Assembly: GCA_001761425.1 (NCBI GenBank)
Contig: CP012986.1
Coordinates: 450,001 to 482,000 of the forward strand
Reading direction: 5' to 3'
Length of the DNA stretch: 32,000 nucleotides
Origin: Candidatus Saccharimonadota bacterium
Lineage (GTDB): Archaea > Nanohalarchaeota > Nanosalinia > Nanosalinales > Nanosalinaceae
Shown here: positions 1-32,000 of the stretch, in pieces
How positions within the stretch are numbered: position 1 is the first letter of the stretch
Layout: each line of letters opens with the position of its first letter
The notes under the pieces: generated by a model
What the model was told of the DNA's origin: nothing
The model's input: the letters and a program-made list of their open reading frames with translations, nothing else
Database searches by the model: none
Position numbers and translations under genes: made by a program

Positions 1-56
1 GTACGAAGAAGCTACTGGAAGAGAAATATAATGAGTTGAGGCCTTTAACTGTTTTT

Positions 57-224
57 TCAGGCCTTTACTGTGATAGGAAGTTTTTCCTGTTTCATTTCTC
101 TCTTGGCGATGTCCATAGGCTCTTCGTCGCCTTCTGTGTCTACGAATGCTGGTGCTCCCATTGCGATTTGAAGGCTTCTTGCGCCCAGGACTCTTGCTTT
201 CTCGTATCTTGTGAAATCTTTCAT
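57..224 (-). CDS. rpoK: DNA-directed RNA polymerase subunit K (Rpo6/omega-like), 55 aa; below the ORF-track size cutoff
   Basis: Hand translation of the minus strand gives MKDFTRYEKARVLGARSLQIAMGAPAFVDTEGDEEPMDIAKREMKQEKLPITVKA*. The TRYEKARVLGARSLQIAMGAP core is the conserved RpoK/Rpb6 motif. ATG at 224, TGA at 57-59. Confidence 0.8.
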   Translation of the reverse strand: MKDFTRYEKARVLGARSLQIAMGAPAFVDTEGDEEPMDIAKREMKQEKLPITVKA

Positions 225-230
225 TTAGTA

Positions 231-995
231 TCAACCTATGTAGCCTAGATCAGAACCTCCTTGACTGTCCTGATCAGGGCTCTGTGATTGTTTGAGGTTC
301 TGAAGTTTTTTAAGCACTTCCTGTGATTCCTGAACTTTCTCATCCAGATCGCTGTAGTCAAGGTCTACTTCAAGGATTTTCTCTAGAGTCTGTAGAACTG
401 CTTCAGTGGACTTCGGATCGCTCAGAAGGAAGCCCGGTGTTTCTCCAAGTATGCATACTCCTTTTATACCACGTTCCCGGCCCATGCTGACAAGAAGGCC
501 TGAAACGCCGACTATCTGACCTACTTCGTGGTCAAATTCCAGGAACTCTTCATATATTTCTCTCTGATCTTCGTCCGTGACTGCTCCGAAGACATCAGGT
601 TCTTCTACCACGTCTCCGGTTCCGTAACCGCCGATGGTGAGAATCTCATCTGCTTCTAAATCTTCGATGAAATCAAGTATTACCTCTGCTATATCGTAGT
701 GTCCTTCAGGGTTTGAGGCCTGAGCATTGCCTTCTAGAAGGATGATATCTCTTCCTTCGTCTCTCTGAAGCTGGTAGATATTGTTTTTGATCATCTCCAC
801 TTTTTTCCCATCATCGACTATAGTGTAAGGCGGGAAGTGGTGGCTGTGGATCTCGCCTATTTTCTCCGCTTCCAGGTTATCAGCCAGGTAACTTACACAG
901 TTTCTTCCGATGTGACCGATGCCTGCGAGGCCTTCGATAAATAACGGGTTTTCTACTCCAGGTTCTTTATCCAGTTTCAGTTCAGTTTGAGACAT
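231..995 (-). CDS. PAC2-family (COG1938) proteasome assembly chaperone-like protein
   Basis: 254-aa ORF. The N-terminus LFIEGLAGIGHIGRNCVSYL...EIHSHHFPPY resembles archaeal PbaA/PbaB-type PAC2 proteins. Acidic C-terminal tail. Confidence 0.6.
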   Translation of the reverse strand: MSQTELKLDKEPGVENPLFIEGLAGIGHIGRNCVSYLADNLEAEKIGEIHSHHFPPYTIVDDGKKVEMIKNNIYQLQRDEGRDIILLEGNAQASNPEGHYDIAEVILDFIEDLEADEILTIGGYGTGDVVEEPDVFGAVTDEDQREIYEEFLEFDHEVGQIVGVSGLLVSMGRERGIKGVCILGETPGFLLSDPKSTEAVLQTLEKILEVDLDYSDLDEKVQESQEVLKKLQNLKQSQSPDQDSQGGSDLGYIG

Positions 996-1001
996 ATTGA
1001 T

Positions 1002-1145
1002 TCATTCACCTTTCTTTGTCTTACGGCGGTATTTCCCGTATTTATCCGGGAAAGAAAACTTTGGAGGTCTCGCCCTCTCTGTTTCAACACCGCAGTGTTC
1101 ATCTTTCAACGTGTAACTACTGCATTCTGGACACTTTTTAATCAT
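1002..1145 (-). CDS. nop10: H/ACA RNP subunit Nop10, 47 aa; below the ORF-track cutoff
   Basis: Hand translation gives MIKKCPECSSYTLKDEHCGVETERARPPKFSFPDKYGKYRRKTKKGE*. It has the zinc-ribbon CxxC..C plus PPKFSP-like/YGKYRR motifs typical of Nop10. It lies directly downstream of aIF2-alpha, the conserved archaeal arrangement. Confidence 0.8.
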   Translation of the reverse strand: MIKKCPECSSYTLKDEHCGVETERARPPKFSFPDKYGKYRRKTKKGE

Positions 1146-1164
1146 AGGAGTTCACCGAAAGGCC

Positions 1165-1920
1165 TTATGCACGGCTGAACCTGAACTCGCCGTCAAGTTC
1201 GTCCGCTTTATCTCTGATCTGGTCCACAGCTTGGTCCATTCGTTTCTTCGCAAGTTCCTGTGTCCGGCCCCAGGCCTTGATAGAGTATTTAGGTGCTGAG
1301 ATATATTTGACTTCCACTCCTTCCTCAAGGCCTTCAAAAGTCTTTTTTATGAGTTCTGTTCCATTACCCTGGCTGTATTCGAGATCGATCTCTCCCTCGA
1401 ATTTCTCCTGTTTCAGGTCGATGTTTTCACGGGCTACTTCCTGGACGGCCTCCACTATTTCTTCCTCCAGTAGGTCTTTCAGACGCTCTTCCTCGGCAAC
1501 TGATACCTCAAAGCCGTGGAAGCTGGATCCGAACTCTTCCTGGAGCTTGAAACCGATTTCCTCGTAGGCCTCTTTCTTTTCTATATCTAGTTTGTCTGCC
1601 AGGTCTTCGATGAAGGCCTCTGCTTTTTTCTCTTTGTTCCAGCGGGCCATTGCGTCTCTTTTCTGGTTCTCGTTTACTCTTTTGATGGAGAGGTTAATGC
1701 TATCTTGGTCTACCTCGATTACCTGTGCGACCGTCTTCTCTCCCTCGCCCAGTTCTTTTCTGACGTCCTGTATCCAGGAGCGGGAGACCTCGGAGATGTG
1801 CAGAAGCCCGTCGACGTCTCTGTATTCGTCAAGTTCTGCGTATGCCGAATTCTTGTCCACATCTGTAAGTGTTATTACAACAAAATCTCCTTCGTCAGGT
1901 TTATCTTTGTACCAGCGCAT
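1165..1920 (-). CDS. eif2a: translation initiation factor aIF2 alpha subunit
   Basis: 251-aa ORF with an N-terminal S1/OB domain (GDFVVITLTDVDKNSAYAELDEY..GLLHISEVS). Length and layout are typical of aIF2-alpha. A TATA-like TTTTTAAG lies about 30 nt upstream of the ATG. Confidence 0.85.
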   Translation of the reverse strand: MRWYKDKPDEGDFVVITLTDVDKNSAYAELDEYRDVDGLLHISEVSRSWIQDVRKELGEGEKTVAQVIEVDQDSINLSIKRVNENQKRDAMARWNKEKKAEAFIEDLADKLDIEKKEAYEEIGFKLQEEFGSSFHGFEVSVAEEERLKDLLEEEIVEAVQEVARENIDLKQEKFEGEIDLEYSQGNGTELIKKTFEGLEEGVEVKYISAPKYSIKAWGRTQELAKKRMDQAVDQIRDKADELDGEFRFSRA

Positions 1921-2146
1921 AGATTCGTAGTGGAAAGTGATTCTTAAAAAGACGCCTCTGGCTCCCAGATCAGGCTGTTAGTAACCACGATTTATTACTG
2001 GGGAAAATAGAGATGATCGAAACAGGGTTAAACACATGGGAAGGCCTTGTACTGGGTTTTTCCGTGCCTGAACGTCTGTTGTGAAATTTTGATAAAATTG
2101 AAAGTATCTGCGGGCGGGAGAGAATGAAGTGAAAGGCCTTGAAGAT

Positions 2147-2320
2147 TTATTCTACTTCAAGGTGTTCTATGATTTCTGCGTTCAGCTCTGCCTGTCCGCC
2201 TGTGGGTTTTGCGATAACTGTTCCACAGACAAGGCATTCGACGCTTGTGGAAGCTCTGGAAAAGATTACCTGTTCGTTTCCACATTCGTTGCATTTTGCT
2301 TTGTAAAAATTGCGTGCCAT
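2147..2320 (-). CDS. rps27e: 30S ribosomal protein S27e, 57 aa; below the ORF-track cutoff
   Basis: Hand translation gives MARNFYKAKCNECGNEQVIFSRASTSVECLVCGTVIAKPTGGQAELNAEIIEHLEVE*, with the C4 zinc ribbon characteristic of eS27. Confidence 0.85.
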   Translation of the reverse strand: MARNFYKAKCNECGNEQVIFSRASTSVECLVCGTVIAKPTGGQAELNAEIIEHLEVE

Positions 2321-2330
2321 AATTGATTTT

Positions 2331-2633
2331 TCACCTCTCTATTTCGAACTTTGCTGCTCTTGGCTGATTTCTGGGCTTCCATGACTTTCCGCATTCTTTG
2401 CATGAGAACTGTAGGTCGTGCTTGCTGGAAGTAGGATTGGACTTACCTCTTGAAAGGTGTGAAGGATCTTCGAACGGGAACGAACCGTATCCTTTATCGA
2501 TCTTTCTCTGTCTCTTCCTGTGTTTCTTCTTGAAAGGACTGGTACCTCTGTTGGTAACTTCCTTTACTGTTTGCTCCGTATGTTCATCGCAGCTGGGACA
2601 GTATCTTCGCTGCTCCTTTGGAATCTTGACCAT
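2331..2633 (-). CDS. rpl44e: 50S ribosomal protein L44e (eL42)
   Basis: ORF-track 2331..2675 begins at a GTG. The internal ATG at 2633 gives MVKIPKEQRRYCPSCDEHTEQTVKEV..., the typical L44e N-terminus and zinc ribbon, and leaves a 42-nt spacer after pyrH. Confidence 0.85.
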   Translation of the reverse strand: MVKIPKEQRRYCPSCDEHTEQTVKEVTNRGTSPFKKKHRKRQRKIDKGYGSFPFEDPSHLSRGKSNPTSSKHDLQFSCKECGKSWKPRNQPRAAKFEIER

Positions 2634-2675
2634 ATCAGAAATCGAGGTGTTAAACTTTAAAAGACCTCTTCTCAC

Positions 2676-3314
2676 TCATGGAACAATCTGGGTTCCCAGG
2701 GCCTCATCCGGATCACTGATGTTTTCCAGCGTCCCTTCCAGAATCCTGGTTTCAGTACCTGAACGTTCGATAATATCGATAGCGGTCAAATCGATCAGCT
2801 CGTGACCACCGGCCTCATTGTTCCCTGAAACAACACTTCTTAGCTTCTCTGTAGAGATTTGGTCGAAACGTTTAGCATCAACCTCTTCAGGGTTTTTATC
2901 ATAGACACCGTCAACAGTGGTAGCGATATACAGATCTGCCTCCAGAATCTCGGCAGCGATAGCAGCCACAGCATCTGTCGAATGACCAGGGGTAAGGCCT
3001 CCCATCACAACATTCTGGCCGGTACTTGCTGCCTTCCTGATCTCTTCAGCGGTCTTTGGAGTATCAGGGTAGGCCTTCATCGCAGTCATCAAGGTCTTTG
3101 CGTTCAGACGGGTAGCGGCGATACCGACCAAGTCCTGTTCTCCCTGATTGCCGAAGTCTCCTGCTGCACGGATATACTCTTTGAGGCCTCCAGCACCGGT
3201 TACGACTAAAATCTGTTCTTCACCGTTCTGTAAGGCATTTGCCAGGTCTCCGAGCTCATCAAGGTTTTCGGTTATAAGCGATCCGCTTACCGCATATACT
3301 TTATCGACGTTCAT
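2676..3314 (-). CDS. pyrH: uridylate (UMP) kinase, archaeal type
   Basis: 212-aa amino-acid-kinase fold: VVTGAGGLKEYI, VMGGLTPGHSTDAVAA, ATTVDGVYDKNP. Confidence 0.8.
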   Translation of the reverse strand: MNVDKVYAVSGSLITENLDELGDLANALQNGEEQILVVTGAGGLKEYIRAAGDFGNQGEQDLVGIAATRLNAKTLMTAMKAYPDTPKTAEEIRKAASTGQNVVMGGLTPGHSTDAVAAIAAEILEADLYIATTVDGVYDKNPEEVDAKRFDQISTEKLRSVVSGNNEAGGHELIDLTAIDIIERSGTETRILEGTLENISDPDEALGTQIVP

Positions 3315-3949
3315 TTGATTACCTCCGCGTTCCCACGGTTTTCAAGTATCTCGGCGTTATCTTCCGGCACTTCGACCTGATCGCCTTCCTCGAAAGGTCC
3401 GTAGGCCTCGAGATCAGTGCCCATGAACTCTGGTACATCAGAATTGATCTCTACGATGTTGTAACCTTCCTCGGGTTCTGGAAGATCATCTTCTCTGGTA
3501 TCCTCTTCCTCTTCTTCACTGTTTTCTTTAGTTTCTTCTTTTTCCGATGCCTTTTCCGCCATTTCAGGCCTTTGCGGGTTTGCATCTTCTTCCTGTGCAT
3601 CCAGGAAATCGCTTATCCTGTCTCTGTGATCGGAGAAGTTTTCTTTTAGTTCTCTGAAGAGCTGTTTTTCTCTTGGCATCACGTTCATCTCTTCCAGGCT
3701 GACATTGGATGTGACGGACAGCTGGGCGTTTTTCACTATCTTGTCCTCCCTCAGAGATATTATCTTCCTGAAAACTCTTTTTGCGTTCTTGTATTCCCTT
3801 GATTCTCCTGATACATCTTTTTTCCGGCTCAGGTACTCTACTACGTCGGCGACAAAGTCTTCATCCAGTTCTGAAAGCTCATCCTGTCTTCTTTCCTGTT
3901 TCTGGATTTTTCTCAGCTCGCTGAATGTCAGTGCTTCGTCTCCGCTCAT
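3311..3949 (-). CDS. GINS-like replication complex subunit (Gins51-type N-terminus) with a long acidic linker
   Basis: The N-terminus LTFSELRKIQKQERRQDELSELDEDFVADVVEYL matches the archaeal GINS A-domain pattern. The gene sits immediately downstream of the primase gene, a known archaeal linkage. The call is by motif recall only. Confidence 0.5.
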   Translation of the reverse strand: MSGDEALTFSELRKIQKQERRQDELSELDEDFVADVVEYLSRKKDVSGESREYKNAKRVFRKIISLREDKIVKNAQLSVTSNVSLEEMNVMPREKQLFRELKENFSDHRDRISDFLDAQEEDANPQRPEMAEKASEKEETKENSEEEEEDTREDDLPEPEEGYNIVEINSDVPEFMGTDLEAYGPFEEGDQVEVPEDNAEILENRGNAEVIK

Positions 3950-3999
3950 CCTATTTTAACCACGTTCTTGTAAACTTTTTAGGCCCTGCCTCGGAGCTT

Positions 4000-5394
4000 T
4001 CAGGAAATCTTTCTGACTTCTCCATCGCCCTCACACTCCTTTACATGCCTTTTGTAGTAATGATTTTCGCTCTTGTAGCTCTTGCCGCAGTAAGGACACT
4101 CTACATCTTCATCATCTTCCTCACCGCCTCCATTGCCATCTTCCCTGCGGTTAGCCTTCCTGAAAGCATAACTGACAGGGTTCGGGACCTGCTCCTCCAG
4201 GTTGTCGCCTTCATACACTTGCATATCTTTGTAATATCCGTTAGCATCGTAGTTCGGTGGAGGGACATCTTCATCACGGTTTCTGTGCCAGTTCAACTGT
4301 CCTTTGACATAGGCCTCACGCAGGGCCTCATTGTTTCTCTCGTTCCACTGCCAGATCTTGGACTCTATCTCCTCCCAGGAATAGCCCACAGTCCTGTAAA
4401 AATTGATCAGGATAAACAGGCCGCGCTTTCTTCCGTCTTCAAGGCCTTCAAGAATGTTTTTTACCGTAGGAGGGAAGTATTTCTCCGGTATGGCGTCTTC
4501 AGGCCTTTCAAAATCTCTGTCCTGGTTCATGCGCTCTTCTTTCTTTTCCTTACGCCTTTCCTCGATGAAATCCATAGCCTGGATCACAAGGTTCTTTGCC
4601 TCTCCTTTCTCGTAGTCCTCGAGGAAGTCTGTTTCAAAGTCGACATTTTCTATTTCTGCCTGTTCTTTCTCGAAATTCTTGATTTCCTCTGGGTCGATAG
4701 GCAGGGATACAAGCCAGCTGCCGTCGTGTAGAGAGTAAGGCATACGGAAAAGATGTCTTTGACCCCAGTCATTCTCTATATCCGAGACCTGATATGGGTC
4801 AAGGCCTTGATCCGTCTCCATTTCTTCTCTGTAGCCGTATTCTTCGACTTTTTCTATTAACTGTTCTTCCAGCTGTTCTCTCAGGTAATCAACTATTCCC
4901 CGTGCCAGGTTAGGGTATAACTGGGAGAAATGCTGGTCATTAACGTTCTCGGGTAAGGCCTCCCCTCTTATGCCGATATGGAATCCTCTGTTTCCTGAGA
5001 ATTTCACTGAAATATTTTTTATGTCGTGCTGTCTTAGTTCTTCTACTAGAAGCTGTGCTGTTTCTTTTGCGAGTTCAAAGCTGTAGTCGCAGTCGATATC
5101 CATTACAAGGTCCCAGGCCTCACGGAGATTGTCTAGGTTGGAGACGTTGTCTATCAGAAGAGGGTTTTTCCATCGTTCGACGGAGGCGTGGAAGGCTATG
5201 GCACCGTTGTTTACAAGTTCTTCGAAGTCGCCTCTGAAGTTTATTGCGTCAGGCCTTTTTCCGTATCCTTTCGGGTATGTCGGGGTTATCTCACGGTATT
5301 CGGAGGTGCGGAGAAATTTCTCTATAAGTTCGTCCTGCTCGTAGTACTGTCTTATCTTCCAGTCCTGAGGCCTTTTACCCTCCTCTTCCCCCAT
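4000..5394 (-). CDS. priS: DNA primase: AEP catalytic (PriS) domain fused to a PriL-CTD-like helical domain and a C-terminal zinc finger
   Basis: AEP motifs are LVMDIDCD (DxD), FSGNRGFHIGI (sGxGxH) and MPYSLHDGS (hD). The C-terminal half has FPPTVKNILEGLEDGRKRGLFILINFY, resembling the FPPC motif region of PriL. The tail is CPYCGKSYKSENHYYKRH. Confidence 0.8.
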   Translation of the reverse strand: MGEEEGKRPQDWKIRQYYEQDELIEKFLRTSEYREITPTYPKGYGKRPDAINFRGDFEELVNNGAIAFHASVERWKNPLLIDNVSNLDNLREAWDLVMDIDCDYSFELAKETAQLLVEELRQHDIKNISVKFSGNRGFHIGIRGEALPENVNDQHFSQLYPNLARGIVDYLREQLEEQLIEKVEEYGYREEMETDQGLDPYQVSDIENDWGQRHLFRMPYSLHDGSWLVSLPIDPEEIKNFEKEQAEIENVDFETDFLEDYEKGEAKNLVIQAMDFIEERRKEKKEERMNQDRDFERPEDAIPEKYFPPTVKNILEGLEDGRKRGLFILINFYRTVGYSWEEIESKIWQWNERNNEALREAYVKGQLNWHRNRDEDVPPPNYDANGYYKDMQVYEGDNLEEQVPNPVSYAFRKANRREDGNGGGEEDDEDVECPYCGKSYKSENHYYKRHVKECEGDGEVRKIS

Positions 5395-5473
5395 GATTGA
5401 TTTTTATCGGTAAACTGTAAAAAACCGTCCGGGTGCTTCCCCCCAGAAAATAGTTTCAGGGTCTCAGAACCGG

Positions 5474-5869
5474 TTAATCTTGGTTGTCAAAGTCTAGGGC
5501 CTTGGAATTGATGCAGAACCGTTTCCCTGTCGGCTCAGGCCCGTCTTCAAATACGTGCCCGAGGTGAGATCCGCAGTTGGCACATACGACCTCGGTCCTG
5601 TTCATCCCGAGACTGTTATCGTCTTTGAACTCAACTGTGCCATCAATCGCATCGTAAAACGAAGGCCACTGGTCGGATTCGAACTTGGTATCTGAGTCAA
5701 AAAGTTTCTGTCCACAGGCCTTGCATCGGTAGATTCCTTCATCGTCTTTTTTCAGGTATTCTCCGGTTCCAGGCCTTTCGGTGTCTGCCTCTCGCAGGAT
5801 TCTGTACTCCTCTTCGCTGAGTCTGTCCTTTAATTCTTCCTCGTCGATCTGTTCTACCATATAGTTCAC
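5474..5869 (-). CDS. msrB: peptide-methionine (R)-S-oxide reductase MsrB
   Basis: SelR domain with two CxxC pairs (CKACGQ, CANCGSHLGHVF) and the RFCINS catalytic Cys motif. Confidence 0.85.
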   Translation of the reverse strand: MNYMVEQIDEEELKDRLSEEEYRILREADTERPGTGEYLKKDDEGIYRCKACGQKLFDSDTKFESDQWPSFYDAIDGTVEFKDDNSLGMNRTEVVCANCGSHLGHVFEDGPEPTGKRFCINSKALDFDNQD

Positions 5870-5931
5870 CTGGTTTCTTCAGAGTTAAACCTACGGTTTT
5901 TTGTGTTTATGATTGCTTCTGTGAAAAGGCC

Positions 5932-6666
5932 TTATTCCTGGCTGATTTCTTCTGTGTAGACTTCTGGGGGTATCTCATGGCTTCCTAAAGTGTTTTTCGT
6001 GATGTTCCAGTCGTCGTGCTGGTTTATAAGGTGTCTGATGCTTTTTTCGTCTCTGGGATATTTTACTGTCCGGAAATCTCTGTCTTGATCGATTAAGGCA
6101 CCTCTCTCATCGCCCATAGGTTCTTCTGGGATCTGGATTTCACTGCTGTACTGTATCAGGTTTGCCTGCTTCGTCTGAGGCCAGTAAGCTATTAGTTCAA
6201 CTCCTCTGATATCGGGAAAAGCATTTAGAGAAGTGCTACTTATTTCTTCTCCTATTCTGTCTATGTCACGGACTCTGCCTTCGTTATAAAATACCAGTGA
6301 GAAAGAGGAGTCTGCTACAGAACTGTTCATATCTTCGATCTCCCTCATAGCGTTCAGACGTTCTTCTCCAGGCCTGAGACTTGCGGGGACGGCCTCCCGC
6401 TGATATACAGGAACCTCGCCCGGATCTGGAACTTCTTCTTTTCCTTCTTGTTTCTTCTCCAGCCAGACATCCTCGTTGATATACTCGAAACCTAGGTAGG
6501 CCTCATCCATATCATCTAGGATTTCATCGACAGAAAAACCTCTGAAACGCTGATTATCCTCAACGTTCCTGGGCTTATCTAAAATATAGATCCTGTTAGG
6601 TTCGTAGCCAAACTTTCTCCGCTCATCTTCCGAGGGGTAGGCCTCGCCTTCAAAAGCAGTCTCCAT
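5932..6666 (-). CDS. hypothetical acidic protein
   Basis: 244-aa ORF with composition like its neighbours. No motif recognised. Confidence 0.5.
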   Translation of the reverse strand: METAFEGEAYPSEDERRKFGYEPNRIYILDKPRNVEDNQRFRGFSVDEILDDMDEAYLGFEYINEDVWLEKKQEGKEEVPDPGEVPVYQREAVPASLRPGEERLNAMREIEDMNSSVADSSFSLVFYNEGRVRDIDRIGEEISSTSLNAFPDIRGVELIAYWPQTKQANLIQYSSEIQIPEEPMGDERGALIDQDRDFRTVKYPRDEKSIRHLINQHDDWNITKNTLGSHEIPPEVYTEEISQE

Positions 6667-6747
6667 AACTATATTTTAGGCCTGAAAATCTTTAACTCTG
6701 ACGAACCTCTGTAACTTCTTGGTAAAAAGAGAGGTTAAATGGGTATG

Positions 6748-6777
6748 TGAAGAGTTTTATTCCTCTTCTATGCGTGG
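6748..6777. repeat. direct repeat copy 1: displaced copy of the PCNA 3' end
   Basis: TGAAGAGTTTTATTCCTCTTCTATGCGTGG matches 6813-6842 at 28 of 30 positions. On the minus strand it reads ..SPRIEEE-TAA. Confidence 0.8.
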
Positions 6778-6778
6778 C

Positions 6779-6802
6779 GAAGCATTCGCTATACGATGCT
6801 TC
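6779..6802. repeat. perfect 7-bp stem / 10-nt loop hairpin between the two repeat copies, just downstream of the PCNA stop
   Basis: GAAGCAT-TCGCTATACG-ATGCTTC read directly from the sequence. Confidence 0.7.
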
Positions 6803-6812
6803 TTAGAGCATA

Positions 6813-6842
6813 TGAAGAGTTCTACTCCTCTTCTATGCGTGG
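6813..6842. repeat. direct repeat copy 2: the authentic PCNA 3' end plus 9 nt downstream of the stop
   Basis: TGAAGAGTTCTACTCCTCTTCTATGCGTGG encodes ..APRIEEE-TAG of PCNA on the minus strand. Confidence 0.8.
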
Positions 6843-7574
6843 TGCCAGGACAAAGCTCAGGTCTACTTCGTCTGGTACGATGAATTCGAGTCTCATCGGG
6901 AAGTCTTCGCCGAGCTTGATGGTGACGTTGTCGTTGAGCTTTTTTGCTCCGATCATCTTGGAGAGATAATCCAGGCTGAACATGGATTTTGCGTCGCCAC
7001 CTTCCATATCGAGGACTCCTTCTGATCCCTCTGTGATCTCGAAGTTGACGTTGGATTGGTCTCCGTCAGCGGAGATTTCGAGGCTTTCGCCGTCGGCGGA
7101 AACTGTTACTGCGTCGGATACGACCATTGCGTCTTTGATAGCGCCTTCAAGTACGTTTGTCTCCAGCTCTGCTTCGAATGTGAAGTCAAGCTGATCTGTG
7201 CTCGGTATATCGTCCTCTGAGAGGTTGAGGATCGGGAGCGAGAAGTTCCTGGTCGAGGAATTCTCCATTGTGATATGGAACTTGGAGTCATCCTCCTTCA
7301 GTTCTAGAGTGATAGTATCGTCGCTGTTTGCTCTTCTGAGGATCGAATAGAAGTTTTCCAGGTTGAGGCCTACCTTTGTTTCCTCTTCCAGTTCATAACT
7401 TTCGAAGACTTCTTCCTTAAGCTTGTAGTCCACAAGGCCTACCATTGCAGGGTCTGCTGCGATCAGTTTGATGCCGTCTTCCTCTAGCTGGAAGAGGCCT
7501 TCACTGATAAGGTCTGAGACGGTTTTCATCGAGTCCTTCAGTAGTCCTACGTCCTCAAGTTCTGCTTTAAACAT
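6822..7574 (-). CDS. pcn: DNA polymerase sliding clamp (PCNA)
   Basis: 250 aa. Has MFKAEL...LKDSMKTVSDLISEG, the typical two-domain layout, and the LAPRIEEE C-terminus characteristic of archaeal PCNA. Confidence 0.9.
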   Translation of the reverse strand: MFKAELEDVGLLKDSMKTVSDLISEGLFQLEEDGIKLIAADPAMVGLVDYKLKEEVFESYELEEETKVGLNLENFYSILRRANSDDTITLELKEDDSKFHITMENSSTRNFSLPILNLSEDDIPSTDQLDFTFEAELETNVLEGAIKDAMVVSDAVTVSADGESLEISADGDQSNVNFEITEGSEGVLDMEGGDAKSMFSLDYLSKMIGAKKLNDNVTIKLGEDFPMRLEFIVPDEVDLSFVLAPRIEEE

Positions 7575-7593
7575 TTCAATAATTCACCTTATG

Positions 7594-7929
7594 TTACTCG
7601 GATGTGCTAACAACTTTTTTAACTCTGTCGTAAAGCTCTGGATCAAGGCCTTCAAGGCTCTGGACGATCTCTCCCTGGATCTCAAAGCTGTCAGGTGTTG
7701 GAAGAACTCTTCCGAATACTCTTACCCGAGCGTTTTCCTCTATATCTTCTAAAGCTTCTTCATCGAGGAAGGCTTCCACTGAGCCGGTTCCATCGTCGAT
7801 TGTTACTGCATCCTGGTCTTTTGAGAGTACTGTTCCGATTATTCTTACTCTTATATCGTTCTGCGGGTTGATGTCTTCGATGTTTTTAGGCCTTGCAGGT
7901 GCTCTTCTCTGCTGTTGCTCTGGTGGCAT
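7594..7929 (-). CDS. small OB-fold nucleic-acid-binding protein, possibly an RPA-associated ssDNA-binding subunit
   Basis: 111 aa. The pattern IRVRIIGTVLSKDQDAVTIDDGTGSVEAFL...RVRVFGRV is an OB-fold (tRNA_anti-like) signature. It lies 19 nt upstream of PCNA on the same strand. Confidence 0.45.
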   Translation of the reverse strand: MPPEQQQRRAPARPKNIEDINPQNDIRVRIIGTVLSKDQDAVTIDDGTGSVEAFLDEEALEDIEENARVRVFGRVLPTPDSFEIQGEIVQSLEGLDPELYDRVKKVVSTSE

Positions 7930-8022
7930 AATAGTTCAGACGCATCTAACTGTTTTAACTTTGTTTCTACTGTACCTCAAATTTCGAAGGTTTCAAATAC
8001 AGGTTTCCGCAAATATCTTTGT

Positions 8023-22728: not shown

Positions 22729-22734
22729 TATTTT

Positions 22735-24825: not shown

Positions 24826-26095
24826 CTGTCTCCACCTCTGTCTGACATGTTGAAGCTGTCCCGCTGTATGAGCAGGATTTTATAGAGGATGGAAGCGTGC
24901 TGTAAGGCTGTGCGGAGCATGAGTAGCTTCCTCCACTAGCTGAGTTTTCATTTACCTGGAAGCTGAGATCTATCTTCCATTTAAGGTTTCCGAGAGTGCT
25001 GTTAGGGACGTTTTTGAACTTTTTGTCTCTGCAGGTGAGTGTGGTATCTATCTTTGAATTTATAGATAGGCTCCAGGACTTGATACAGTTATAGTCCCAC
25101 TGGGGTTCTACACAGTCTCCTGTTGAGTTTGTCTCTGCACAGCCACATCTTACTCCATTGCTGACGTTGTTCGCGCTTTCTCCCTCGTTCACGGTTACGA
25201 TGTGGCCCGGGAACTGGTTGCCGTTTTTCCTGTTCGACGTAAAGCTGCATTCGACGCTCGTATCGTTGAAGTATTCCTGGCTGCTTTCAAGTTTTTCTCT
25301 CTCTTCTGCTAGGCCTTCCACTACAGCTTGATCCATCAATGTGCCGTGATCGGAACACATCTTCGGGCTTGGATAGTTACATTTGGAAGGTCCTGTGATA
25401 CACATACTGTTGGTCCTGGACCCTTGATCTTTCACATTGCTGAGCTGGCTCACGACCTTGTTTTTCAGGTTCTCCTGGTTCACCCATTTCTTCAGAGTCG
25501 AGTAGATATACCAGTGTCTGTTGTACTTGATATCTTTCGACAGCGTAACACTTCTCTCACTGTTCTGAAGGCCTCCTGTCTCTCTGGTAAGGTTGATCGA
25601 TTCTATCTCAACTGCCTGTGTAAAGTTATCGCTGTCCTTTGAAGCAGGAAGCTCGTTGTGGCCAGTATCCAGACATGAGGCCTTACCTATGCTGTAAACG
25701 TTGCTGTCTCTTATTCCGTGCATTTCGTTGAATCTCTCTTGCATATAATCCAGGGTGAAGTTGGAGGTCGTGTTTCTGACAACCTCTACATCTGGTACCT
25801 GTGTAGAACCTCCGCAGTACCAGTAGCGGGCTTCCTGGTCTTCTGAGCGCCTTCCAGAGTAGTTTCCGGCTTTATCACTGCCTTTCTGACCTGCATAGAA
25901 GAGACTGTTTTCTAGATAGAGCCTTACGTTTTCAAAACGGTTGTTGAACGTGTTTACCTGTGACTGCTGGATGATCTCTTGCTGGACGCCTGTGCCAGAA
26001 CTGGTAGAGGCCTTGAACCAGGAGACAGCGATCAGAGAAATTACCAGGATAATGAAGACTGCTATGAGGGTGCTGGCGCCTTTTCTATCTACCAT
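24818..26095 (-). CDS. type IV pilin-like protein (425 aa), Cys-rich
   Basis: N-terminus is MVDRKG/ASTLIAVFIILVISLIAV. Confidence 0.65.
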   Translation of the reverse strand: MVDRKGASTLIAVFIILVISLIAVSWFKASTSSGTGVQQEIIQQSQVNTFNNRFENVRLYLENSLFYAGQKGSDKAGNYSGRRSEDQEARYWYCGGSTQVPDVEVVRNTTSNFTLDYMQERFNEMHGIRDSNVYSIGKASCLDTGHNELPASKDSDNFTQAVEIESINLTRETGGLQNSERSVTLSKDIKYNRHWYIYSTLKKWVNQENLKNKVVSQLSNVKDQGSRTNSMCITGPSKCNYPSPKMCSDHGTLMDQAVVEGLAEEREKLESSQEYFNDTSVECSFTSNRKNGNQFPGHIVTVNEGESANNVSNGVRCGCAETNSTGDCVEPQWDYNCIKSWSLSINSKIDTTLTCRDKKFKNVPNSTLGNLKWKIDLSFQVNENSASGGSYSCSAQPYSTLPSSIKSCSYSGTASTCQTEVETVE

Positions 26096-26598
26096 CTCTG
26101 TATCATAACCTCCGACCTGTTCCCAGTAGCCAGCGGAAACTCAAGAGTTGAAGAGATAACTTTCCCCGGGTTATCAGGTAATTCTTCGCCGATTACAATT
26201 TTTCTGTCAGAGCTATCTCCGCAGTCAGCGGTGAAACGATAATCCGTACCTAGTGACCTGTTAAGATAGGACTCAAGGAAAGTAACGGTCTCAACTCTGA
26301 GGCCTTCGGGTTCTGATATTTTGAATGCGTATCCTTCCTCTTTCTTACCGTAATCACAGGCCTGTGAGATAACCGTGGCGATCTTCATATTGTCCTCACG
26401 TGGAATAGGGAAAGAGCGTGTGTAAAGGCCTTTAAGCTCCATTTCAGAGTTGAAGGAAACGTCTGTGGTTACCAGTGTTTCCAGGTTCTGAGCCTGGTTG
26501 CCTGACTGAGTTACAAAGAGGAAAAGTGCAAAGATAGCAGTTAGAAGGACTCCTAGAAGGGTATACATGGAGCTGGCCTGGCCCTTCCCTGTATTCAT
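26089..26598 (-). CDS. type IV pilin-like protein
   Basis: N-terminus is MNTGKG/QASSMYTLLGVLLTAIFALFLFV. Confidence 0.65.
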   Translation of the reverse strand: MNTGKGQASSMYTLLGVLLTAIFALFLFVTQSGNQAQNLETLVTTDVSFNSEMELKGLYTRSFPIPREDNMKIATVISQACDYGKKEEGYAFKISEPEGLRVETVTFLESYLNRSLGTDYRFTADCGDSSDRKIVIGEELPDNPGKVISSTLEFPLATGNRSEVMIQRW

Positions 26599-26650
26599 GG
26601 TATTAGAAGAGTCTAGTTAGAATTTAAGGTATAGGCCTTCTATTGTTTTT

Positions 26651-27217
26651 TTATTCCCCCAGGCCCTGGAAGTTCTGGCTGTACCATGTGACTTCTTCTA
26701 TTTCATCTAGTCCGCAGGTACCGATGGTTTTGTCGCTTTCTCCGTTTGGTTGGTACCATTCTGCGATGCTGTTGTTTGCCTCTTCTTCAGACTGGCCTAC
26801 TTCTGAGGAAGTGTAATAGTTTTTCATTACTTCTTTGCATCTTTCTGCGTTTAGCTGTTCCTGTCCGATTTCGCATGTGTGGACGTTGAAGCATTTTACA
26901 CCGTCTTCGCAGTAAGAATTGTATAGTCTTCCGGCGGTTTCCGATAGTGTGCCGTCTCCGTCTGCGTCATAATTGAACGTGGAAGTACAGTAGTCTATTG
27001 CTGCTGTCTGACCTCTCACGCCCTGAGCCGACTTGTACTCAGAACACTTAGACTGACAGGTACGAGAAATCTCCTCCTGCTGCAAAGTATTCTCATACTG
27101 ATCACCAGGATTATCCTGGAACTGGTTTAGGAAGGTTGAGATTACGACGCCGGCCACGACAAGTAAAATTACAAGGCCTATTATCATTTCCAGCGACTTC
27201 TGTCCCTTCCTGAACAT
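26651..27217 (-). CDS. type IV pilin-like protein; first gene of the operon and a candidate major pilin
   Basis: N-terminus is MFRKG/QKSLEMIIGLVILLVVAGVVISTF (QxSxE pattern). It is Cys-rich with a YDADGDGTLSE motif. A TATA box lies upstream. Confidence 0.7.
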   Translation of the reverse strand: MFRKGQKSLEMIIGLVILLVVAGVVISTFLNQFQDNPGDQYENTLQQEEISRTCQSKCSEYKSAQGVRGQTAAIDYCTSTFNYDADGDGTLSETAGRLYNSYCEDGVKCFNVHTCEIGQEQLNAERCKEVMKNYYTSSEVGQSEEEANNSIAEWYQPNGESDKTIGTCGLDEIEEVTWYSQNFQGLGE

Positions 27218-27239
27218 AATTAACTAAACCGAAATCCTC

Positions 27240-27249
27240 TTTTTTATAT
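27240..27249 (-). promoter_or_regulatory. TATA box of the pilin-like operon
   Basis: The minus strand reads ATATAAAAAA, 23-32 nt upstream of the ATG at 27217. It lies in the 42-nt spacer after the gltX stop. Confidence 0.5.
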
Positions 27250-27259
27250 CCTAATTAAA

Positions 27260-28939
27260 TCACTCATGAGCAAAGTAGTAGAGGCCTTCTTCATCGCATT
27301 TCACGAAGCCAAATCTCTCGAACTGGACGACTTCACCTTCTTCGATCTCATTCGGCTCGATCACTCCTTCAATCGTATCGCCGTTAGGCATCCTGACAGA
27401 GGCCTTCTCCGCATATTCTGGGGTCCAGTGGATGAAGTCTGCATCTTTTTCAAGAGCGACTTTGTGATCGCCTTCAACGAATTCTGCTTCTTTTCCAGAG
27501 ATTTTGATGTTGCAGAGGCCTTTCAGACGGTAGAAGCCGTCTTCAAGATCTTCGCTGTCGATAAAGATTTCAAGCTCTCCATCTTTGATTTCCAGATCCG
27601 GTGAGCGGATACCTCTTTCTGGATGTTCTGGGTGAAACCTCATTTCTGGTTCAAGGTTTTCTGGAAGGCCTTTGACTGTAAGTTTTTCTGGTTCTGCGAC
27701 GAAGAAGTATCTGTCTGCGTCCTCGTCGATCACACGGGTGTTTTCCTTTTCCAGTGTTTCCACAGAGGCCTCGATATCTTTCTCTGAGACTCCCATCTCG
27801 GTGTAGAAGTTTTTCAATGCTTCAGGCTGGAAACCTCTTTTCTTTAACGCTTTCAATGTTGGAGCTTGTGGATCATCCCAGCCGTCTAGCTCGCCGTCTT
27901 CAATCATTTCGGAGAGCTTGGAGCCGGAGACAGGGGCGTTGAAACCTGAGATTTTGACGTTGCCCCAGTGACGGACCTCAGGATACTCCCAGCCCAGGTA
28001 CCTGTAAACGTATTCCTGACGCTTCTTCGAGGCCCTAAGATCCTTTCCACGGAAAATATGGGTTGTTCCCATCATGTGGTCCTCGACAGCTCCCTGAAAA
28101 TCAAGCATAGGCCAGACACGGTATTTGCCCCCGGTGATCGGGTGATCAGGGTCATCGATAATCCTGAAGGCCACGAAATCTCTCACAGCAGGGTTCTTGT
28201 GCTGCATATCCGTCTTGACCTTCAGAGTTGCTTCTCCTTCCGAGATACCGCCGTTTTTCATCTTCTTCCAGAGTTCCATGTTTTTTTCAACACTCTGGCC
28301 TCTATGTGGACAGAATTCTCCTTCTTTTCTGTATTCCTGACCTTCCTCCTGCGAACACTTACATACATAGGCCTTCTCCATTTCAATTAATTCTTCAGCG
28401 ACTCTGATGTATTCGTCAAAGTTTTTTGAGGAGTAACGGATTTCATCGATTTCATAGCCCAGCCATTCGTAATCTTCTTTCAGCATCTCGTATGCATCGT
28501 ATTCTTCGGTTTTCAGAGGCCTTTTTGTGACAGGATCGGTGTCATCGTAGCGTAGAATCAGTTTTCCGTTGTATTTCTGCTTTAGTTCTCCGTTGATGAC
28601 CATTCCTCTGGCGTGTCCGACGTGTGGAGGCCCGTTCGGATTTGGGGCAAACCTGAGAACTACTTCCTCGTCTTCATTGACATCCAGGTCTGGAATCGGA
28701 TCATGTTTTTCTTCCTGCTGTTCCTCGAACTCGTATTCTTCAAGTTCTTCCTCCTGCTTTTCCTGAGATAGCCCGTTGACCTCTTCACATACTTCCTGCG
28801 CCTTTTTCTGTACTTCGCCTTTGTCTTCAAATTCCTCTTCTGCGAATATCTTTCCGATTACTGCTCCAGGGTTGCATTCTCCGCCGTGTTCCACAGCGTT
28901 GTTCAAAGCGTATTTACGGGCTATCTCCTCAATTTCCAT
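27260..28939 (-). CDS. gltX: glutamyl-tRNA synthetase (archaeal type)
   Basis: RFAPNPNGPPHVGHARG (HIGH motif), LRYDDTDP and a class I GluRS/GlnRS catalytic core. Has an acidic N-terminal extension. Confidence 0.85.
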   Translation of the reverse strand: MEIEEIARKYALNNAVEHGGECNPGAVIGKIFAEEEFEDKGEVQKKAQEVCEEVNGLSQEKQEEELEEYEFEEQQEEKHDPIPDLDVNEDEEVVLRFAPNPNGPPHVGHARGMVINGELKQKYNGKLILRYDDTDPVTKRPLKTEEYDAYEMLKEDYEWLGYEIDEIRYSSKNFDEYIRVAEELIEMEKAYVCKCSQEEGQEYRKEGEFCPHRGQSVEKNMELWKKMKNGGISEGEATLKVKTDMQHKNPAVRDFVAFRIIDDPDHPITGGKYRVWPMLDFQGAVEDHMMGTTHIFRGKDLRASKKRQEYVYRYLGWEYPEVRHWGNVKISGFNAPVSGSKLSEMIEDGELDGWDDPQAPTLKALKKRGFQPEALKNFYTEMGVSEKDIEASVETLEKENTRVIDEDADRYFFVAEPEKLTVKGLPENLEPEMRFHPEHPERGIRSPDLEIKDGELEIFIDSEDLEDGFYRLKGLCNIKISGKEAEFVEGDHKVALEKDADFIHWTPEYAEKASVRMPNGDTIEGVIEPNEIEEGEVVQFERFGFVKCDEEGLYYFAHE

Positions 28940-29011
28940 AACAGGCCTTGCGGAAGAAATTTCTATAAAATGAATGCCTCTATTCTTCCTTCATGTTGGG
29001 GTTAATTCTGG

Positions 29012-29194: not shown

Positions 29195-29197
29195 AAG

Positions 29198-29584
29198 TTA
29201 ATTTGAGGCACAGTGCTCACAGCAGTAGATTTCTCCTTTTTCCTCGTAACCGCCAGAAAAGATCTCACAGCCGCAGTTCTCACACTCTTCTATTTTTTCA
29301 AGGACTGAGGCCTCTATTATCTCTCCGAATGATTTTGTTTTTTCCTCGGCAAAACTTTCTCCTTCCTCTGTCAGCCTGTAGACCTTTCTCCTTCCATCTT
29401 TTCTCTCGTCTAAGAGGCCTTTATCCACGAGTTTTGACAGGAAAGGATAGATATGAGAGCTTGAAGGCCTTTTACCGGTTATCTTCTCGATTCTGTCCAT
29501 TAACTCGTAGCCGTGCCTGTCTCCGCTCTTCAGCAAGAGTACTGTGTAGAGCCGGTTTACGTGAGATAGATCTATCTCAGTCAT
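29198..29584 (-). CDS. PadR-family winged-helix regulator with a C-terminal TRASH-like Cys-rich metal-binding domain
   Basis: [47 protein letters not shown] is a PadR wHTH. The tail [25 protein letters not shown] fits a CxxC...CxxC TRASH-type pattern. Confidence 0.7.
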
Positions 29585-29600
29585 GCCTTCAACTATGTCA

Positions 29601-29616
29601 TATATTGATATAAAGG
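29601..29616. promoter_or_regulatory. AT-rich near-palindrome; candidate bidirectional TATA/operator between the padR-like gene and copB
   Basis: TATATTGATATAAAGG contains the inverted halves TATAT/ATATA. Its centre is about 26 nt from the padR-like ATG (29584) and about 39 nt from the ATG at 29649. Confidence 0.35.
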
Positions 29617-29648
29617 TGGATGTCCATGGAGTTTTTGACAGATATTAT

Positions 29649-31691
29649 ATGAGTCGGGATGAAGAGAAGCAAAATTCGGGGAATGGGCACAGACACCATG
29701 AAGTGATGTTCAGGAAGAAGTTCTTTATCTCCACAGTGTTATCCATACCTGTCTTACTCTACTCCTCGTTTATACAAGGACTCCTCAACTTCTCCATGCC
29801 AACATTCACAGGAAGCTCACTTATCGTACCGGTCTTCTCAGTTATTGTTTTCGCATATGGAGGCCTTCCGTTCCTCAGAATGGGTAAGAACGAGTTAGAG
29901 GGTCGTGAACCAGGTATGATGGCGTTGATCTCGCTGGCGATTTTTGTCGCCTTCACTTATTCTATGGCATCGCTTTTCCTCTCTGGAACTTCCAGCTTTT
30001 TCTGGGAGCTAGTCACGTTGATTGATGTCATGCTTCTCGGTCACTGGATCGAGATGAGAAGTGTTAGAAAGGCCTCGGGCGCGCTGGAGGAACTGAAAAA
30101 GCTGATGCCAGATACTGCTGAGAGAATTACAGAAGGAGAGACTGAAGAGGTTAAAGTCTCAGAGCTGGAAGCCGCAGATTGCTCAAATAGAGAATCTGCT
30201 TGCAGCAGCAATCCAGAGGAATGCTGCGAAGGTGATAAAGTGCTTGTCAGGCCTGGAGATTCAATACCGGCGGACGGAGAAGTTTTTGAGGGAGAGTCTT
30301 CTGTCGATGAATCCATGATAACAGGTGAATCAAAACCCGTCGACAAGTCAGAGGGAGATGAGGTTATCGGAGGAACTGTCAACAAGGAAGGTTCTCTGAG
30401 GATCGAGATAACTGCTACAGGAGAGGAAACTGCTCTTTCCGGCATCATGAACCTGGTGGAGGAAGCTCAGGAATCAGAATCAAGGTCTCAGAAGCTCGCG
30501 GACAGGGCAGCAGGACACCTGTTCTACATCGCGCTCGGATCAGGCCTTGTAACAGGCATCGTTTGGACTCTGGCGGTTGGCTTCGGATTAACTGTCATTG
30601 AACGCGTTGTGACGGTTCTCGTAATCGCCTGTCCGCATGCTCTAGGCCTTGCTGTACCGTTGGTTGTTGCTATTAATACGTCGATGGCGGCAAAAAACGG
30701 TATCCTGGTGAGAGACAGGATTGCGATGGAGGAGGCGAGGAAACTGGATACAGTTATTTTTGATAAGACAGGCACTCTGACCGATGGAGAACAGTCTGTG
30801 GTTGATATGGAAGCTGAGAATCGGGATGAGGCCTTGAAGAAGATGGCAGCTGCTGAATCTGATTCCGAACATGTAATCGCACAGGCGATCAGGGAGAAAG
30901 CTCACGAGGAAGGCCTTGAAATTCCTGATTCCTCGAATTTTGACAGTATCTCCGGTAAAGGAGTTAGGGCAGAGGTTGAAGCCAGGGAGGTCTACGTTGG
31001 AGGCCCTAATATGCTGGAGCATCTTGGAGTCGAGAAAAAATTCGGAGACTTTGCTGATAAGTCCGGGGAGGAGGGCTATACAGTGGTCTACGTGGTTGAG
31101 GGTGACGAGGTTACGGCTGCTGTTGCTCTGGCTGATAAGATCCGTGATGAGAGCCGTGAAGCTGTTGAGGAACTTCAGGGTCGAGGCCTTGAGGTTGCGA
31201 TGCTGACTGGAGATTCTGAAGATGTTGCTGAGTCTGTCGCTGGGGAACTCGGTATTGATACCTGCTTCGCAGAAGTTTTACCGGAGGATAAGGATTCTAA
31301 GGTTCAGGAGATCCAGGATGAAGGTAAAGAGGTTGCGATGGTCGGTGACGGGGTTAACGATGCGCCAGCTCTTACAAGAGCGGACGTTGGAATCGCGATT
31401 GGTTCCGGTACTGATGTAGCGGTGGAGTCCGCGGATATCATCCTGGTGAGAAATGATCCTCTGGCGGTCGTTAGACTTCTCAACCTGTCTGATTTGAACT
31501 ACAGCAAGATGATTCAGAACCTGTTCTGGGCAACAGGGTATAATGCTCTTGCGATTCCGCTTGCAGCCGGTGTTGCAGCACCGATCGGTATCATGCTTTC
31601 GCCAGCGGTTGGAGCCGGTATAATGTCACTGTCGACTGTTATAGTTGCGATTAATGCCCAGTTGATGAGGAGAAAGAGTATCGAGGCCTAA
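29649..31691 (+). CDS. copB: heavy-metal (copper) P1B-type ATPase, CopB-like (CPH motif, His-rich N-terminus)
   Basis: TGES, CPH ([13 protein letters not shown]), DKTGTLT and GDGVNDAP motifs, plus N-terminal GNGHRHHE. In-frame ATGs at 29583 and 29595 also exist, but the first overlaps the divergent regulator start. Confidence 0.85.
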
Positions 31692-32000
31692 CTTCTGTAA
31701 CGGCAGTTTATCTCGTCTTTTCTGTTTTCTATGACTTCTTTCTTTTCCTCAGTGTCTTCGGGTATTATTCTTTCGCCGTATTCGCCTCCTCCGCCCGGTA
31801 TCATCACTATTTCATCGTTTCTGAACTTCCTGATAGATTCTGCCACTTCTCTATCAACCTGGGCCAGCTGCTGGATATCCTTCTCCACCAGTATATCTAT
31901 TTCAGCGCCGAACTCCTTGTTCAACGTCTCATACCTGTCCTGAACAGTCTTTGTCGTCGGAGAGGCGTGGCCTACCGTGTACTGGATAATTTTCGCTAGC
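31688..32000 (-). CDS. 3' end of a gene that continues past the window edge; function uncertain, possibly an EndoQ/COG1379 PHP-family C-terminus
   Basis: The frame is open from nt 31999 to the TAG at 31688-31690: ..[37 protein letters not shown]...[15 protein letters not shown]... The track's TTG start at 31924 is internal. The functional guess rests only on recall of a PG(Y/G)xGxYG-type C-terminal motif. Confidence 0.5.

Follow-up and report, generated by a model that had tools for sequence, protein, structure and literature searches.

We analysed a 32,000-nucleotide stretch of an archaeal genome (contig CP012986.1 of assembly GCA_001761425.1, positions 450,001 to 482,000; hereafter the window), in which the palindromic hexamer AGGCCT is strongly over-represented. 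The word is kept by a force that acts on the DNA itself, favours the exact hexamer, comes close to saturating the places where it can be written, alters proteins, retains sites between genomes, spaces its copies evenly and takes time to leave its mark. AGGCCT is the first archaeal counterpart that we have found of the cyanobacterial highly iterated palindromes (HIPs), of which HIP1 is the best known. Our leading, though tentative, explanation is that it is a lineage-specific watermark of the HIP type in one clade of Nanohaloarchaeota, which a methyltransferase-like enzyme would read and thereby bias DNA repair or exchange.

The source genome belongs to the Nanohaloarchaeota (DPANN) and has a size of ~1.1 Mb; the organism is a tiny archaeon of salt lakes. 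The gene content of the window is archaeal (PCNA, GINS51, primase, aIF2-alpha, XPB, endonuclease dU, GluRS, TFS and L44e), and the closest matches of its GluRS come from Nanohaloarchaeota, namely Nanosalina, Nanohalobium and related metagenome-assembled genomes. An identical GluRS protein is encoded by a 1.125 Mb contig of the Joint Genome Institute (JGI) metagenome 3300010222 (L011 below) and by the Logan assembly of SRR2630167. Where the window and L011 overlap, their DNA is 100% identical, apart from one paralogous copy and 7.4 kb of additional sequence in L011; strain polymorphisms that could polarise gains and losses of AGGCCT were sought in this comparison, and none was usable. Sequencing artefact is excluded as the origin of AGGCCT, since the word lies inside codons and is found again both in independent assemblies and in a complete genome of RefSeq. 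Extrapolation from the density in the window suggests roughly 5,000 copies in the whole genome.

The excess of AGGCCT over chance

AGGCCT is the commonest hexamer of the window, with 151 copies by exact count, that is, 4.72 per kb or ~1 per 210 bp. This agrees with the tally and coordinates of an earlier note, made by reading the same DNA by eye. That note had guessed a GC content of ~44%, a chance expectation of ~6 copies and an enrichment of ~25-fold; the measured GC content is 46.9%, the naive expectation is therefore ~6.7-8 copies, and the strong excess it described stands, at 18-23-fold. Dinucleotide-preserving shuffles (n=100) gave 8.24±2.92 copies with a maximum of 17 (z ~49), and a first-order Markov model gave 10.2 expected copies against 182 observed in 38.9 kb. 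A maximal-order Markov model, a check proposed in the earlier note, gave an expectation of 138.7. This figure is uninformative and does not refute the excess, because the words on which it is built, AGGCC (172 copies), GGCCT (175) and GGCC (217), are mostly the hexamer itself; indeed, 151 of the 217 GGCC tetramers of the window sit within AGGCCT.

The enriched word is the full palindrome, as had been claimed, each of its one-base variants occurring only 1-23 times in the window. We found no longer or degenerate version of the motif, and the flanks of AGGCCT hold almost no information apart from a mild preference for A/G at -1 and for T/C at +1. No other palindromic hexamer is comparably enriched; the next, AGATCT, has an observed/expected ratio (O/E) of 2.7 (in 38.9 kb), and we rejected it as a second enriched palindrome because dinucleotide composition accounts for its excess.

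Codon controls and synonymous saturation

For the coding analysis we used 33 gene calls in the window; two further genes were recognised later. The 33 genes hold 137 copies (4.8 per kb), and all but one carry the word (32/33). The copies fall into codon phases 0, 1 and 2 in numbers of 27, 49 and 61, with equal density on both coding strands, and the true spacers (two extra genes counted) contain ~11 copies in ~2.3 kb, a density equal to that of coding sequence. All three codon phases, both gene strands and the spacers had been named in the earlier note, whose three examples from the XPB gene are in the phases given there. In 6 of the 33 genes AGGCCT overlaps the stop codon (at 1160, 5927, 8978, 12938, 22737 and 31684), three of these copies having the form TAA/TGA-GGCCT and three the form GAG GCC TGA/TAA.

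We asked how many copies remain when protein sequence and codon usage are held constant. Synonymous-codon shuffles, which keep both, gave 18.9±4.0 copies when codons were pooled and 23.3±4.0 when they were shuffled within genes, and a codon-order shuffle gave 9.2±3.0, against the 137 observed. The earlier note would have given up its view of a driver at the DNA level had the excess disappeared under codon and dipeptide control; with 137 copies against 19-23, the excess persisted.

We then defined as permissive those positions where the protein lets AGGCCT be written synonymously (Arg-Pro, Lys/Glu/Gln-Ala followed by F, L, S, Y, C, W or stop, and x-Gly-Leu). In the window 137 of 167 permissive positions (about 82-83%) are occupied by AGGCCT, so that synonymous opportunities are close to saturation, at ~80%. 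The force thus acts on DNA itself and is strong enough to alter both codon choice and protein sequences. The core inference of the earlier note, a driver at the DNA level and not selection on proteins, holds on four counts: the codon controls, the synonymous saturation, the density in spacers and the amino-acid changes relative to orthologues that are described below. Individual copies are the following (copies in spacers are given without strand).

1-32000, no strand: AGGCCT copies, dispersed, n=151 by exact count, no conserved flanks
11580-11585, plus strand: XPB, phase 0, AGG CCT = Arg-Pro; the window and L009 encode RPR, L002 and L007 encode YPH
11797-11802, plus strand: XPB, phase 1, CAG GCC Ttg = Gln-Ala-Leu (phase count and orthologue alignment)
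11990-11995, plus strand: XPB, phase 2, ATA GGC CTT = Ile-Gly-Leu; L002 has the same peptide as ATC GGA TTG
12938-12943, plus strand: copy across the XPB stop codon, TGAGGCCT (per-gene count)
1160-1165, minus strand: copy across the aIF2-alpha stop codon, TAAGGCCT on the coding strand (per-gene count)
5927-5932, minus strand: copy across the stop codon of the gene at 5932-6666, TAAGGCCT on the coding strand (per-gene count)
11239-11244: copy in the spacer that separates XPB from the divergent methyltransferase-like gene (location count)
2042-2139: two spacer copies (2042 and 2134) between aIF2-alpha and L44e (location count)
26633-26638: spacer copy within the pilin-like operon (location count)
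28943-28948: copy in the spacer before GluRS, 4 nt upstream of its start codon (location count)

Comparison with relatives

We compared the window with ~20 kb loci around GluRS from 16 other nanohaloarchaeal genomes; a metagenome scan gave 5 loci. The enrichment of AGGCCT in these loci covers a wide range.

O/E 21-24: the window, L002 (Nanosalina sp. VS9-1), L007 and L016
O/E 14: L009
O/E 10: L021
O/E 6-7: L013 and L018
O/E 2.6-4: L003, L019 (Nanosalina J07AB43), L022, L023 and L024
O/E about 1.2-1.5: L001, L014 and L020 (Nanohalobium constans)
O/E 0.2: L025 (GCA_022729235.1, JALDAJ010000001.1)

The occupancy of permissive positions parallels O/E across the relatives. The window stands at 0.83 and three other enriched genomes at 0.73-0.87, whereas the low relatives lie at 0.00-0.16 (9-16%, but for one with 0/55), so that values run from 0.87 down to the 0/55 of L025. 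High and low genomes are interleaved on a neighbour-joining tree of GluRS. The trait is both graded and patchy within a clade of 70-80% protein identity. At the lower extreme, the 21.7 kb locus of L025 has 11 GGCC and 1 AGGCCT. This avoidance of GGCC suggests a GGCC-type restriction system, in a clade that elsewhere enriches AGGCCT.

In orthologue codon alignments, conserved Arg-Pro, Gly-Leu and Glu/Lys-Ala contexts are written with AGGCCT in the enriched genomes, and with other codons (for example AGG CCG, ATC GGC CTG, GAG GGT TTG or CGC CCC) in non-enriched relatives. Many sites also accompany amino-acid replacements, such as KGL versus TGV or TGI, RPR versus YPH, and RPY versus RDY. Indeed, the proteome is reshaped in line with the peptides that AGGCCT encodes: permissive contexts number 15.6-18 per 1000 amino acids in highly enriched genomes against about 9-10 in low ones, and are thus ~1.7 times commoner; Arg-Pro has an O/E of 2.1 in the window against about 0.9 in low genomes, and Gly-Leu one of 1.5-1.8 in highly enriched genomes against about 1.0.

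One of the relatives is heterogeneous along its length. The L009 contig (Nanohalobium sp. DAL-WCL_22_66C1R, positions 1-8865) is dense in AGGCCT over XPB and the methyltransferase gene and has few copies over the ABC transporter genes. These poorer genes are closer to those of non-enriched L001 than to those of the window, and the contig may be recombinant or chimeric.

Specificity, retention and spacing

The force favours the exact hexamer only, in an all-or-none manner. When the words at permissive positions are sorted by Hamming distance from AGGCCT, classes 0:1:2:3 number 268:35:23:10 in the high genomes and 27:116:84:36 in the low genomes. The ratio of class 0 to class 1 is thus shifted about 33-fold, corresponding to a scaled advantage of ~ln 33 = 3.5, with the proportions of classes 1, 2 and 3 unchanged. 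Genome-wide, words one base away from AGGCCT show no enrichment, being at 0.5-2.5 times their level in non-enriched relatives. The neighbours that deamination of the site would give are not depleted relative to non-enriched relatives either (1.02 for AGGTCT/AGACCT and 1.14 for AGGCTT/AAGCCT), and comparison of orthologues shows that AGGCCT was gained by changes at all six positions, transversions included.

Once present, sites tend to be kept. Between enriched genomes, 50-71% of them are retained at the aligned position, as compared with 14-23% for control hexamers; where the amino acids are identical, the values are 85-100% for AGGCCT and 27-31% for the controls. Toward non-enriched genomes retention is 1/13.

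The copies are also more evenly spaced than chance would place them. The dispersion index of AGGCCT counts in 500-bp bins averages 0.56 versus 1.00 in the null (P<0.0005), the densest 500 bp hold at most 5 copies (null mean 7.7), and 16 spacings are below 50 bp where 31 are expected (P=0.001). Dispersion is somewhat lower even than in a shuffle of the observed spacings (P=0.014). Other common hexamers are over-dispersed, with indices of 1.1-2.3. We found no helical or other short periodicity of AGGCCT in the 32 kb window.

The influence of time is seen in L011, which has a motif-free island of 3.1 kb (~12150-15255) where none of 6 permissive positions is used. Its genes are one for a secreted acidic repeat protein of 710 aa and two small ones, and the genes on its flanks have 4-8 copies per kb. 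At the density of this genome (one copy per 211 bp) a gap of such size has a probability of order 10^-6. This strain-specific island is probably recently acquired DNA that has been exposed to the force for a short time.

What maintains the word

We consider it most plausible, with a probability of about 0.45, that AGGCCT is an archaeal HIP-type watermark maintained at the DNA level, and that it is read by a methyltransferase-like enzyme, with a resulting bias in repair or DNA exchange. Since exact-hexamer, palindromic specificity is what a dimeric type II enzyme gives, the reader would be an enzyme of this kind; a DNA methyltransferase, alone or with a partner nuclease, is the most probable candidate. 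Methylated copies may then bias which allele survives, by either of two routes. One would be a methyl-directed mismatch-correction ratchet, as Elhai proposed for cyanobacterial HIPs, where the addition of sites stops once one is nearby (PMC4390886). In the other, DNA that bears the site would survive or integrate better during DNA exchange, as is now reported for HIP1, which raises transformation in a methylation-dependent way and has been proposed as a watermark that assigns kin DNA to recombination and foreign DNA to food (preprint 10.64898/2026.06.24.733823). Under either route a new copy close to an existing one would add little, and even spacing is therefore expected. The enzyme, the methylation and the route of bias are what we infer from the properties of the sites.

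Several points weigh against this explanation. There is no AGGCCT-specific methyltransferase, Vsr-like, MutH-like or restriction gene in the 32 kb window (of a genome of ~1.1 Mb) or in the ~20 kb examined per relative. No signature of hypermutable 5-methylcytosine was detected, as C-to-T neighbours fill 7/12 versus 18/48 unoccupied positions, a difference that is not significant. The one published nanohaloarchaeal methylome motif, GDGCHC, differs from AGGCCT and is rare in that genome (PMC10266531). The retention of sites and their even spacing would be equally expected from direct selection for a protein-binding site, and the mismatch-correction route presupposes an archaeal mismatch-repair system able to read methylation.

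The watermark might have a more particular purpose, although we give this little weight: methylated AGGCCT could be the self-mark of an obligate ectosymbiont that scavenges host nucleic acids, by which its own and conspecific DNA is told from that of the host. Placed every ~200 bp, the mark would stop or ward off a nuclease that degrades DNA, or would permit recombination, like a Chi site in palindromic form. Host DNA, which lacks the mark, would be broken down to nucleotides, and marked alleles would be transmitted preferentially, so that the word would spread by molecular drive. If true, Archaea would here have their first sequence-specific signal for self-DNA recognition or exchange, and the HIP1 principle would have been invented independently.

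One of the other explanations is that AGGCCT is a by-product of protein composition, of codon usage, or of a dispersed repeat or mobile element. Arg-Pro, Gly-Leu and Glu/Lys-Ala are indeed common in the proteome; the synonymous shuffles (19-23 versus 137), the orthologues that encode the same peptides by other codons, and the equal density in spacers nevertheless speak against composition and codon usage. A repeat, mobile element or tandem array was rejected, as there is no conservation of flanks, no tandem or fixed spacing and no indel at the sites in alignments. The codon-artefact and repeat-element explanations are thus refuted, and their remaining probability is negligible. Classical very-short-patch repair, where a C5-cytosine methyltransferase acts together with a Vsr-type T:G endonuclease that restores C within the site, was put forward in the earlier note. 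The palindromic hexamer does match a type II methyltransferase site (StuI specificity), and context-specific mismatch correction does raise the frequency of methyltransferase sites, with Dcm/Vsr in E. coli (CCWGG) and with Mig.Mth and M.MthTI in Methanothermobacter (GGCC). These systems, however, act on T:G only, at a methylated cytosine, and give modest enrichment, whereas AGGCCT is driven at all six positions. Very-short-patch repair feeds only from the two transition neighbours, neither of which is depleted; the gains need changes at positions 1 and 6 and transversions (for instance ATC GGC CTG to ATA GGC CTT, or CGC CCC to AGG CCT), all Hamming classes are drained equally, and a 20-fold enrichment with 80% saturation far exceeds the effect of very-short-patch repair on CCWGG in E. 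coli. As it was stated, this hypothesis is very unlikely, and a broader methylation-linked bias of repair or exchange is the leading idea.

Two more explanations were weighed. If direct selection kept each copy because an abundant protein of chromosome structure, segregation or replication binds there, one would expect the retention between enriched genomes far above controls, the more-than-chance even spacing without dense clusters and the presence of a copy in nearly every gene; Xu et al. favoured selection and a structural role for HIP1 (PMC5861425). The chromatin or segregation protein suggested in the earlier note thus gains from the even spacing and loses by the graded, patchy phylogeny, since an occupancy that varies continuously from 0.00 to 0.87, interleaved among relatives of 70-80% identity, would be odd for an essential architectural site. 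Moreover, one relative (L025) avoids GGCC, strict hexamer specificity is more typical of restriction-modification enzymes, and there is no helical or short periodicity, so that we regard a binding site as unlikely. The word could also be an uptake or exchange signal that a surface receptor, such as a minor pilin, reads directly and without methylation, spreading by molecular drive as proposed for the uptake signal sequences (USS) of Pasteurellaceae and the DNA uptake sequences (DUS) of Neisseriaceae. We know of no sequence-specific uptake in archaea. A pilin-like operon does lie in the window, as the earlier note had remarked in proposing uptake, and a gene for a T2SSF-like platform protein lies in the adjoining segment of L011, the receptor being only hypothetical. 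HIP1, too, is now proposed to serve in uptake or self-recognition (preprint 10.64898/2026.06.24.733823). USS and DUS resemble AGGCCT in being dispersed, in thousands of copies, and gained by substitution. The ~1.7-fold excess of AGGCCT-encoding peptides and the strain-specific island without AGGCCT parallel the roughly doubled USS-encoded tripeptides and the missing of USS from recently acquired genes (PMC2817400), and even spacing suits the need for one signal per fragment. Known uptake sequences, however, are asymmetric words of 9-12 nt that occur about once per kb and have a known receptor and competence system, whereas AGGCCT is a flankless palindromic hexamer, which discriminates little. 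Among uptake sequences, mismatched versions are gradually over-represented (PMC1939737), whereas one-off forms of AGGCCT are not enriched and the proportions among its mismatch classes are unchanged; the palindrome with its all-or-none specificity is in this respect unlike known uptake sequences. Archaeal pilin-like operons, in addition, commonly serve adhesion, and low-enrichment L020 also has pilus genes. An uptake signal is, therefore, rather improbable. The idea of GGCC restriction with protection of AGGCCT only was rejected because total GGCC is 2.2 times the expected number and sites arise from GGCC-free sequences.

Likeness to known systems and significance

HIP1 (GCGATCGC) occurs in cyanobacteria at 0.2-2.73 per kb with an O/E of 15-300, and alternate HIPs are GGCGCC in Calothrix PCC 7103 and CAGGCCTG in Synechococcus PCC 6312 (PMC4390886, PMC5861425). 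The last of these contains the AGGCCT core and reaches 0.37 per kb and an O/E of 14.7 (PMC5861425). HIP1 and the alternate HIPs co-occur with cognate methyltransferases, according to Elhai (PMC4390886). Like these words, AGGCCT is a perfect palindrome, short and GC-rich, that is enriched 15-25-fold; it spread by point substitution, without flanks or indels, in all frames and in spacers; and its sites are kept between related genomes above matched controls, with a patchy phylogeny. It differs in that the host is an archaeon (DPANN), that the word is a hexamer and not GCGATCGC, that its 4.7 copies per kb make it denser than in any reported HIP1 genome, and that one-mismatch forms are not enriched, whereas those of HIP1 (HIP1*) are. 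Restriction-modification of the StuI type (AGG^CCT), for example the AgGCcT system of Alcanivorax borkumensis SK2, uses the same word with exact-hexamer specificity (PMC12128166), but restriction sites are normally avoided (PMC4687349), whereas AGGCCT is enriched 20-fold. Chi, the signal of RecBCD, is likewise a short word present in excess, which labels self DNA and alters what happens to DNA ends; it is asymmetric and oriented with replication, whereas a palindrome carries no orientation.

Full-text searches of the literature gave no paper that describes AGGCCT in Nanohaloarchaeota or other archaea, nor one on any iterated palindrome there. What is new in this case is an archaeal hexamer that is denser than reported HIP1, is all-or-none in its specificity and has left a measurable trace in the proteome. 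Debate on what HIPs do and where they come from has run for ~30 years in cyanobacteria alone, and an independent archaeal case means that they are no cyanobacterial oddity. The nanohaloarchaea also offer a simpler system, with genomes of ~1 Mb and an occupancy that varies continuously from 0.00 to 0.87 among close relatives; given this variation, the responsible gene could be found by phylogenetic correlation. The system may be open to experiment: at least one strongly enriched relative (Candidatus Nanosalina sp. VS9-1) has a complete genome, and methylation and DNA exchange could be tested in it if the strain is in culture. More generally, a pressure at the DNA level can saturate synonymous sites and reshape the proteome, which affects analyses of codon usage, dN/dS and phylogeny in these archaea. 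In practice, AGGCCT can serve as an inbuilt marker with which to flag recently acquired DNA and to bin nanohaloarchaeal contigs.

Neighbouring genes and other observations

Three features of the window concern the genes around the copies.

17297-27217, minus strand: pilin-like operon, 11 genes, with a motif density ordinary for the genome
10599-11207, minus strand: MTS-domain methyltransferase, 202 aa, HemK/PrmA-like housekeeping type without a target-recognition domain
26651-27217, minus strand: junction gene, 188-aa pilin-like; L011 has ~7.4 kb more between it and GluRS

No DNA methyltransferase is encoded in the window or in the ~20 kb loci of the relatives, no tRNA or Rfam match was found in the window, and its open reading frames of unassigned function gave no nuclease or methylase match. 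The methyltransferase at 10599-11207 was rejected as the driver, as it is of the small housekeeping MTS type and adjoins XPB in enriched and non-enriched relatives alike. It belongs to a cluster with endonuclease dU and XPB (9752-12938) that is syntenic across nanohaloarchaea, where the gene for RNA polymerase subunit L often lies between its members.

Most of the 11 genes of the pilin-like operon encode type IV pilin-like class III signal peptides, for example MFRKGQ followed by KSLEMIIGLVILLV and MKGQ followed by LSLEQIAALIIV; further products of the operon are a VWA-domain protein of 836 aa and a protein weakly similar to metallopeptidases. An archaeal signal peptidase I is encoded at 8976-9725. 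On the plus strand, positions 14035-17294 hold a single ABC ATPase gene followed by two tandem pairs of ABC-2 permease genes, which represent a duplication of one pair, ~50% identical between copies; L018 also has four permease genes, and other relatives have one pair. Comparison of L011 (11723-19178) with the window (26651-27260) shows that the extra ~7.4 kb is flanked by a diverged duplicate of the 188-aa pilin-like gene and encodes, besides the 710-aa acidic repeat protein, a pyrophosphatase and the T2SSF-like pilus platform protein, of 724 aa. Since L021 and L022 share the longer arrangement of L011, the shorter form in the window looks like a deletion or a collapse in assembly.

A scan of viral contigs for clusters of AGGCCT returned mostly chance matches or tandem repeats among the matches listed. 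In L085 (IMGVR_UViG_2791354938_000002, positions 1-11862), a tailed prophage of the HK97 type with a TerL that shares 52% identity with those of Lactobacillus delbrueckii phages, 26 dispersed copies of AGGCCT occur in 11.9 kb at a GC content of 0.43 (O/E 14), with 23/44 permissive positions used and 86 GGCC. An excess of AGGCCT or GGCC thus exists in an unrelated bacterial lineage as well, as seen in what was a biased scan. The IMG/VR contig L129 (6700-8430) has a tandem array with a period of ~73 bp and the doublet AGGCCTAGGCCT in each unit, which is unrelated to dispersed AGGCCT; similar tandem repeats are present in L120 (period 54) and L128 (period 29).

Among the tetramers of the window, CTAG (36 vs 121), CGCG (25 vs 97) and GCGC (29 vs 97) are depleted relative to zero-order expectation, and GATC (166 vs 121) and TCGA (165 vs 121) are mildly enriched. 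The plus strand of the window is T-rich (T 9886 vs A 7103) because most genes lie on the minus strand.

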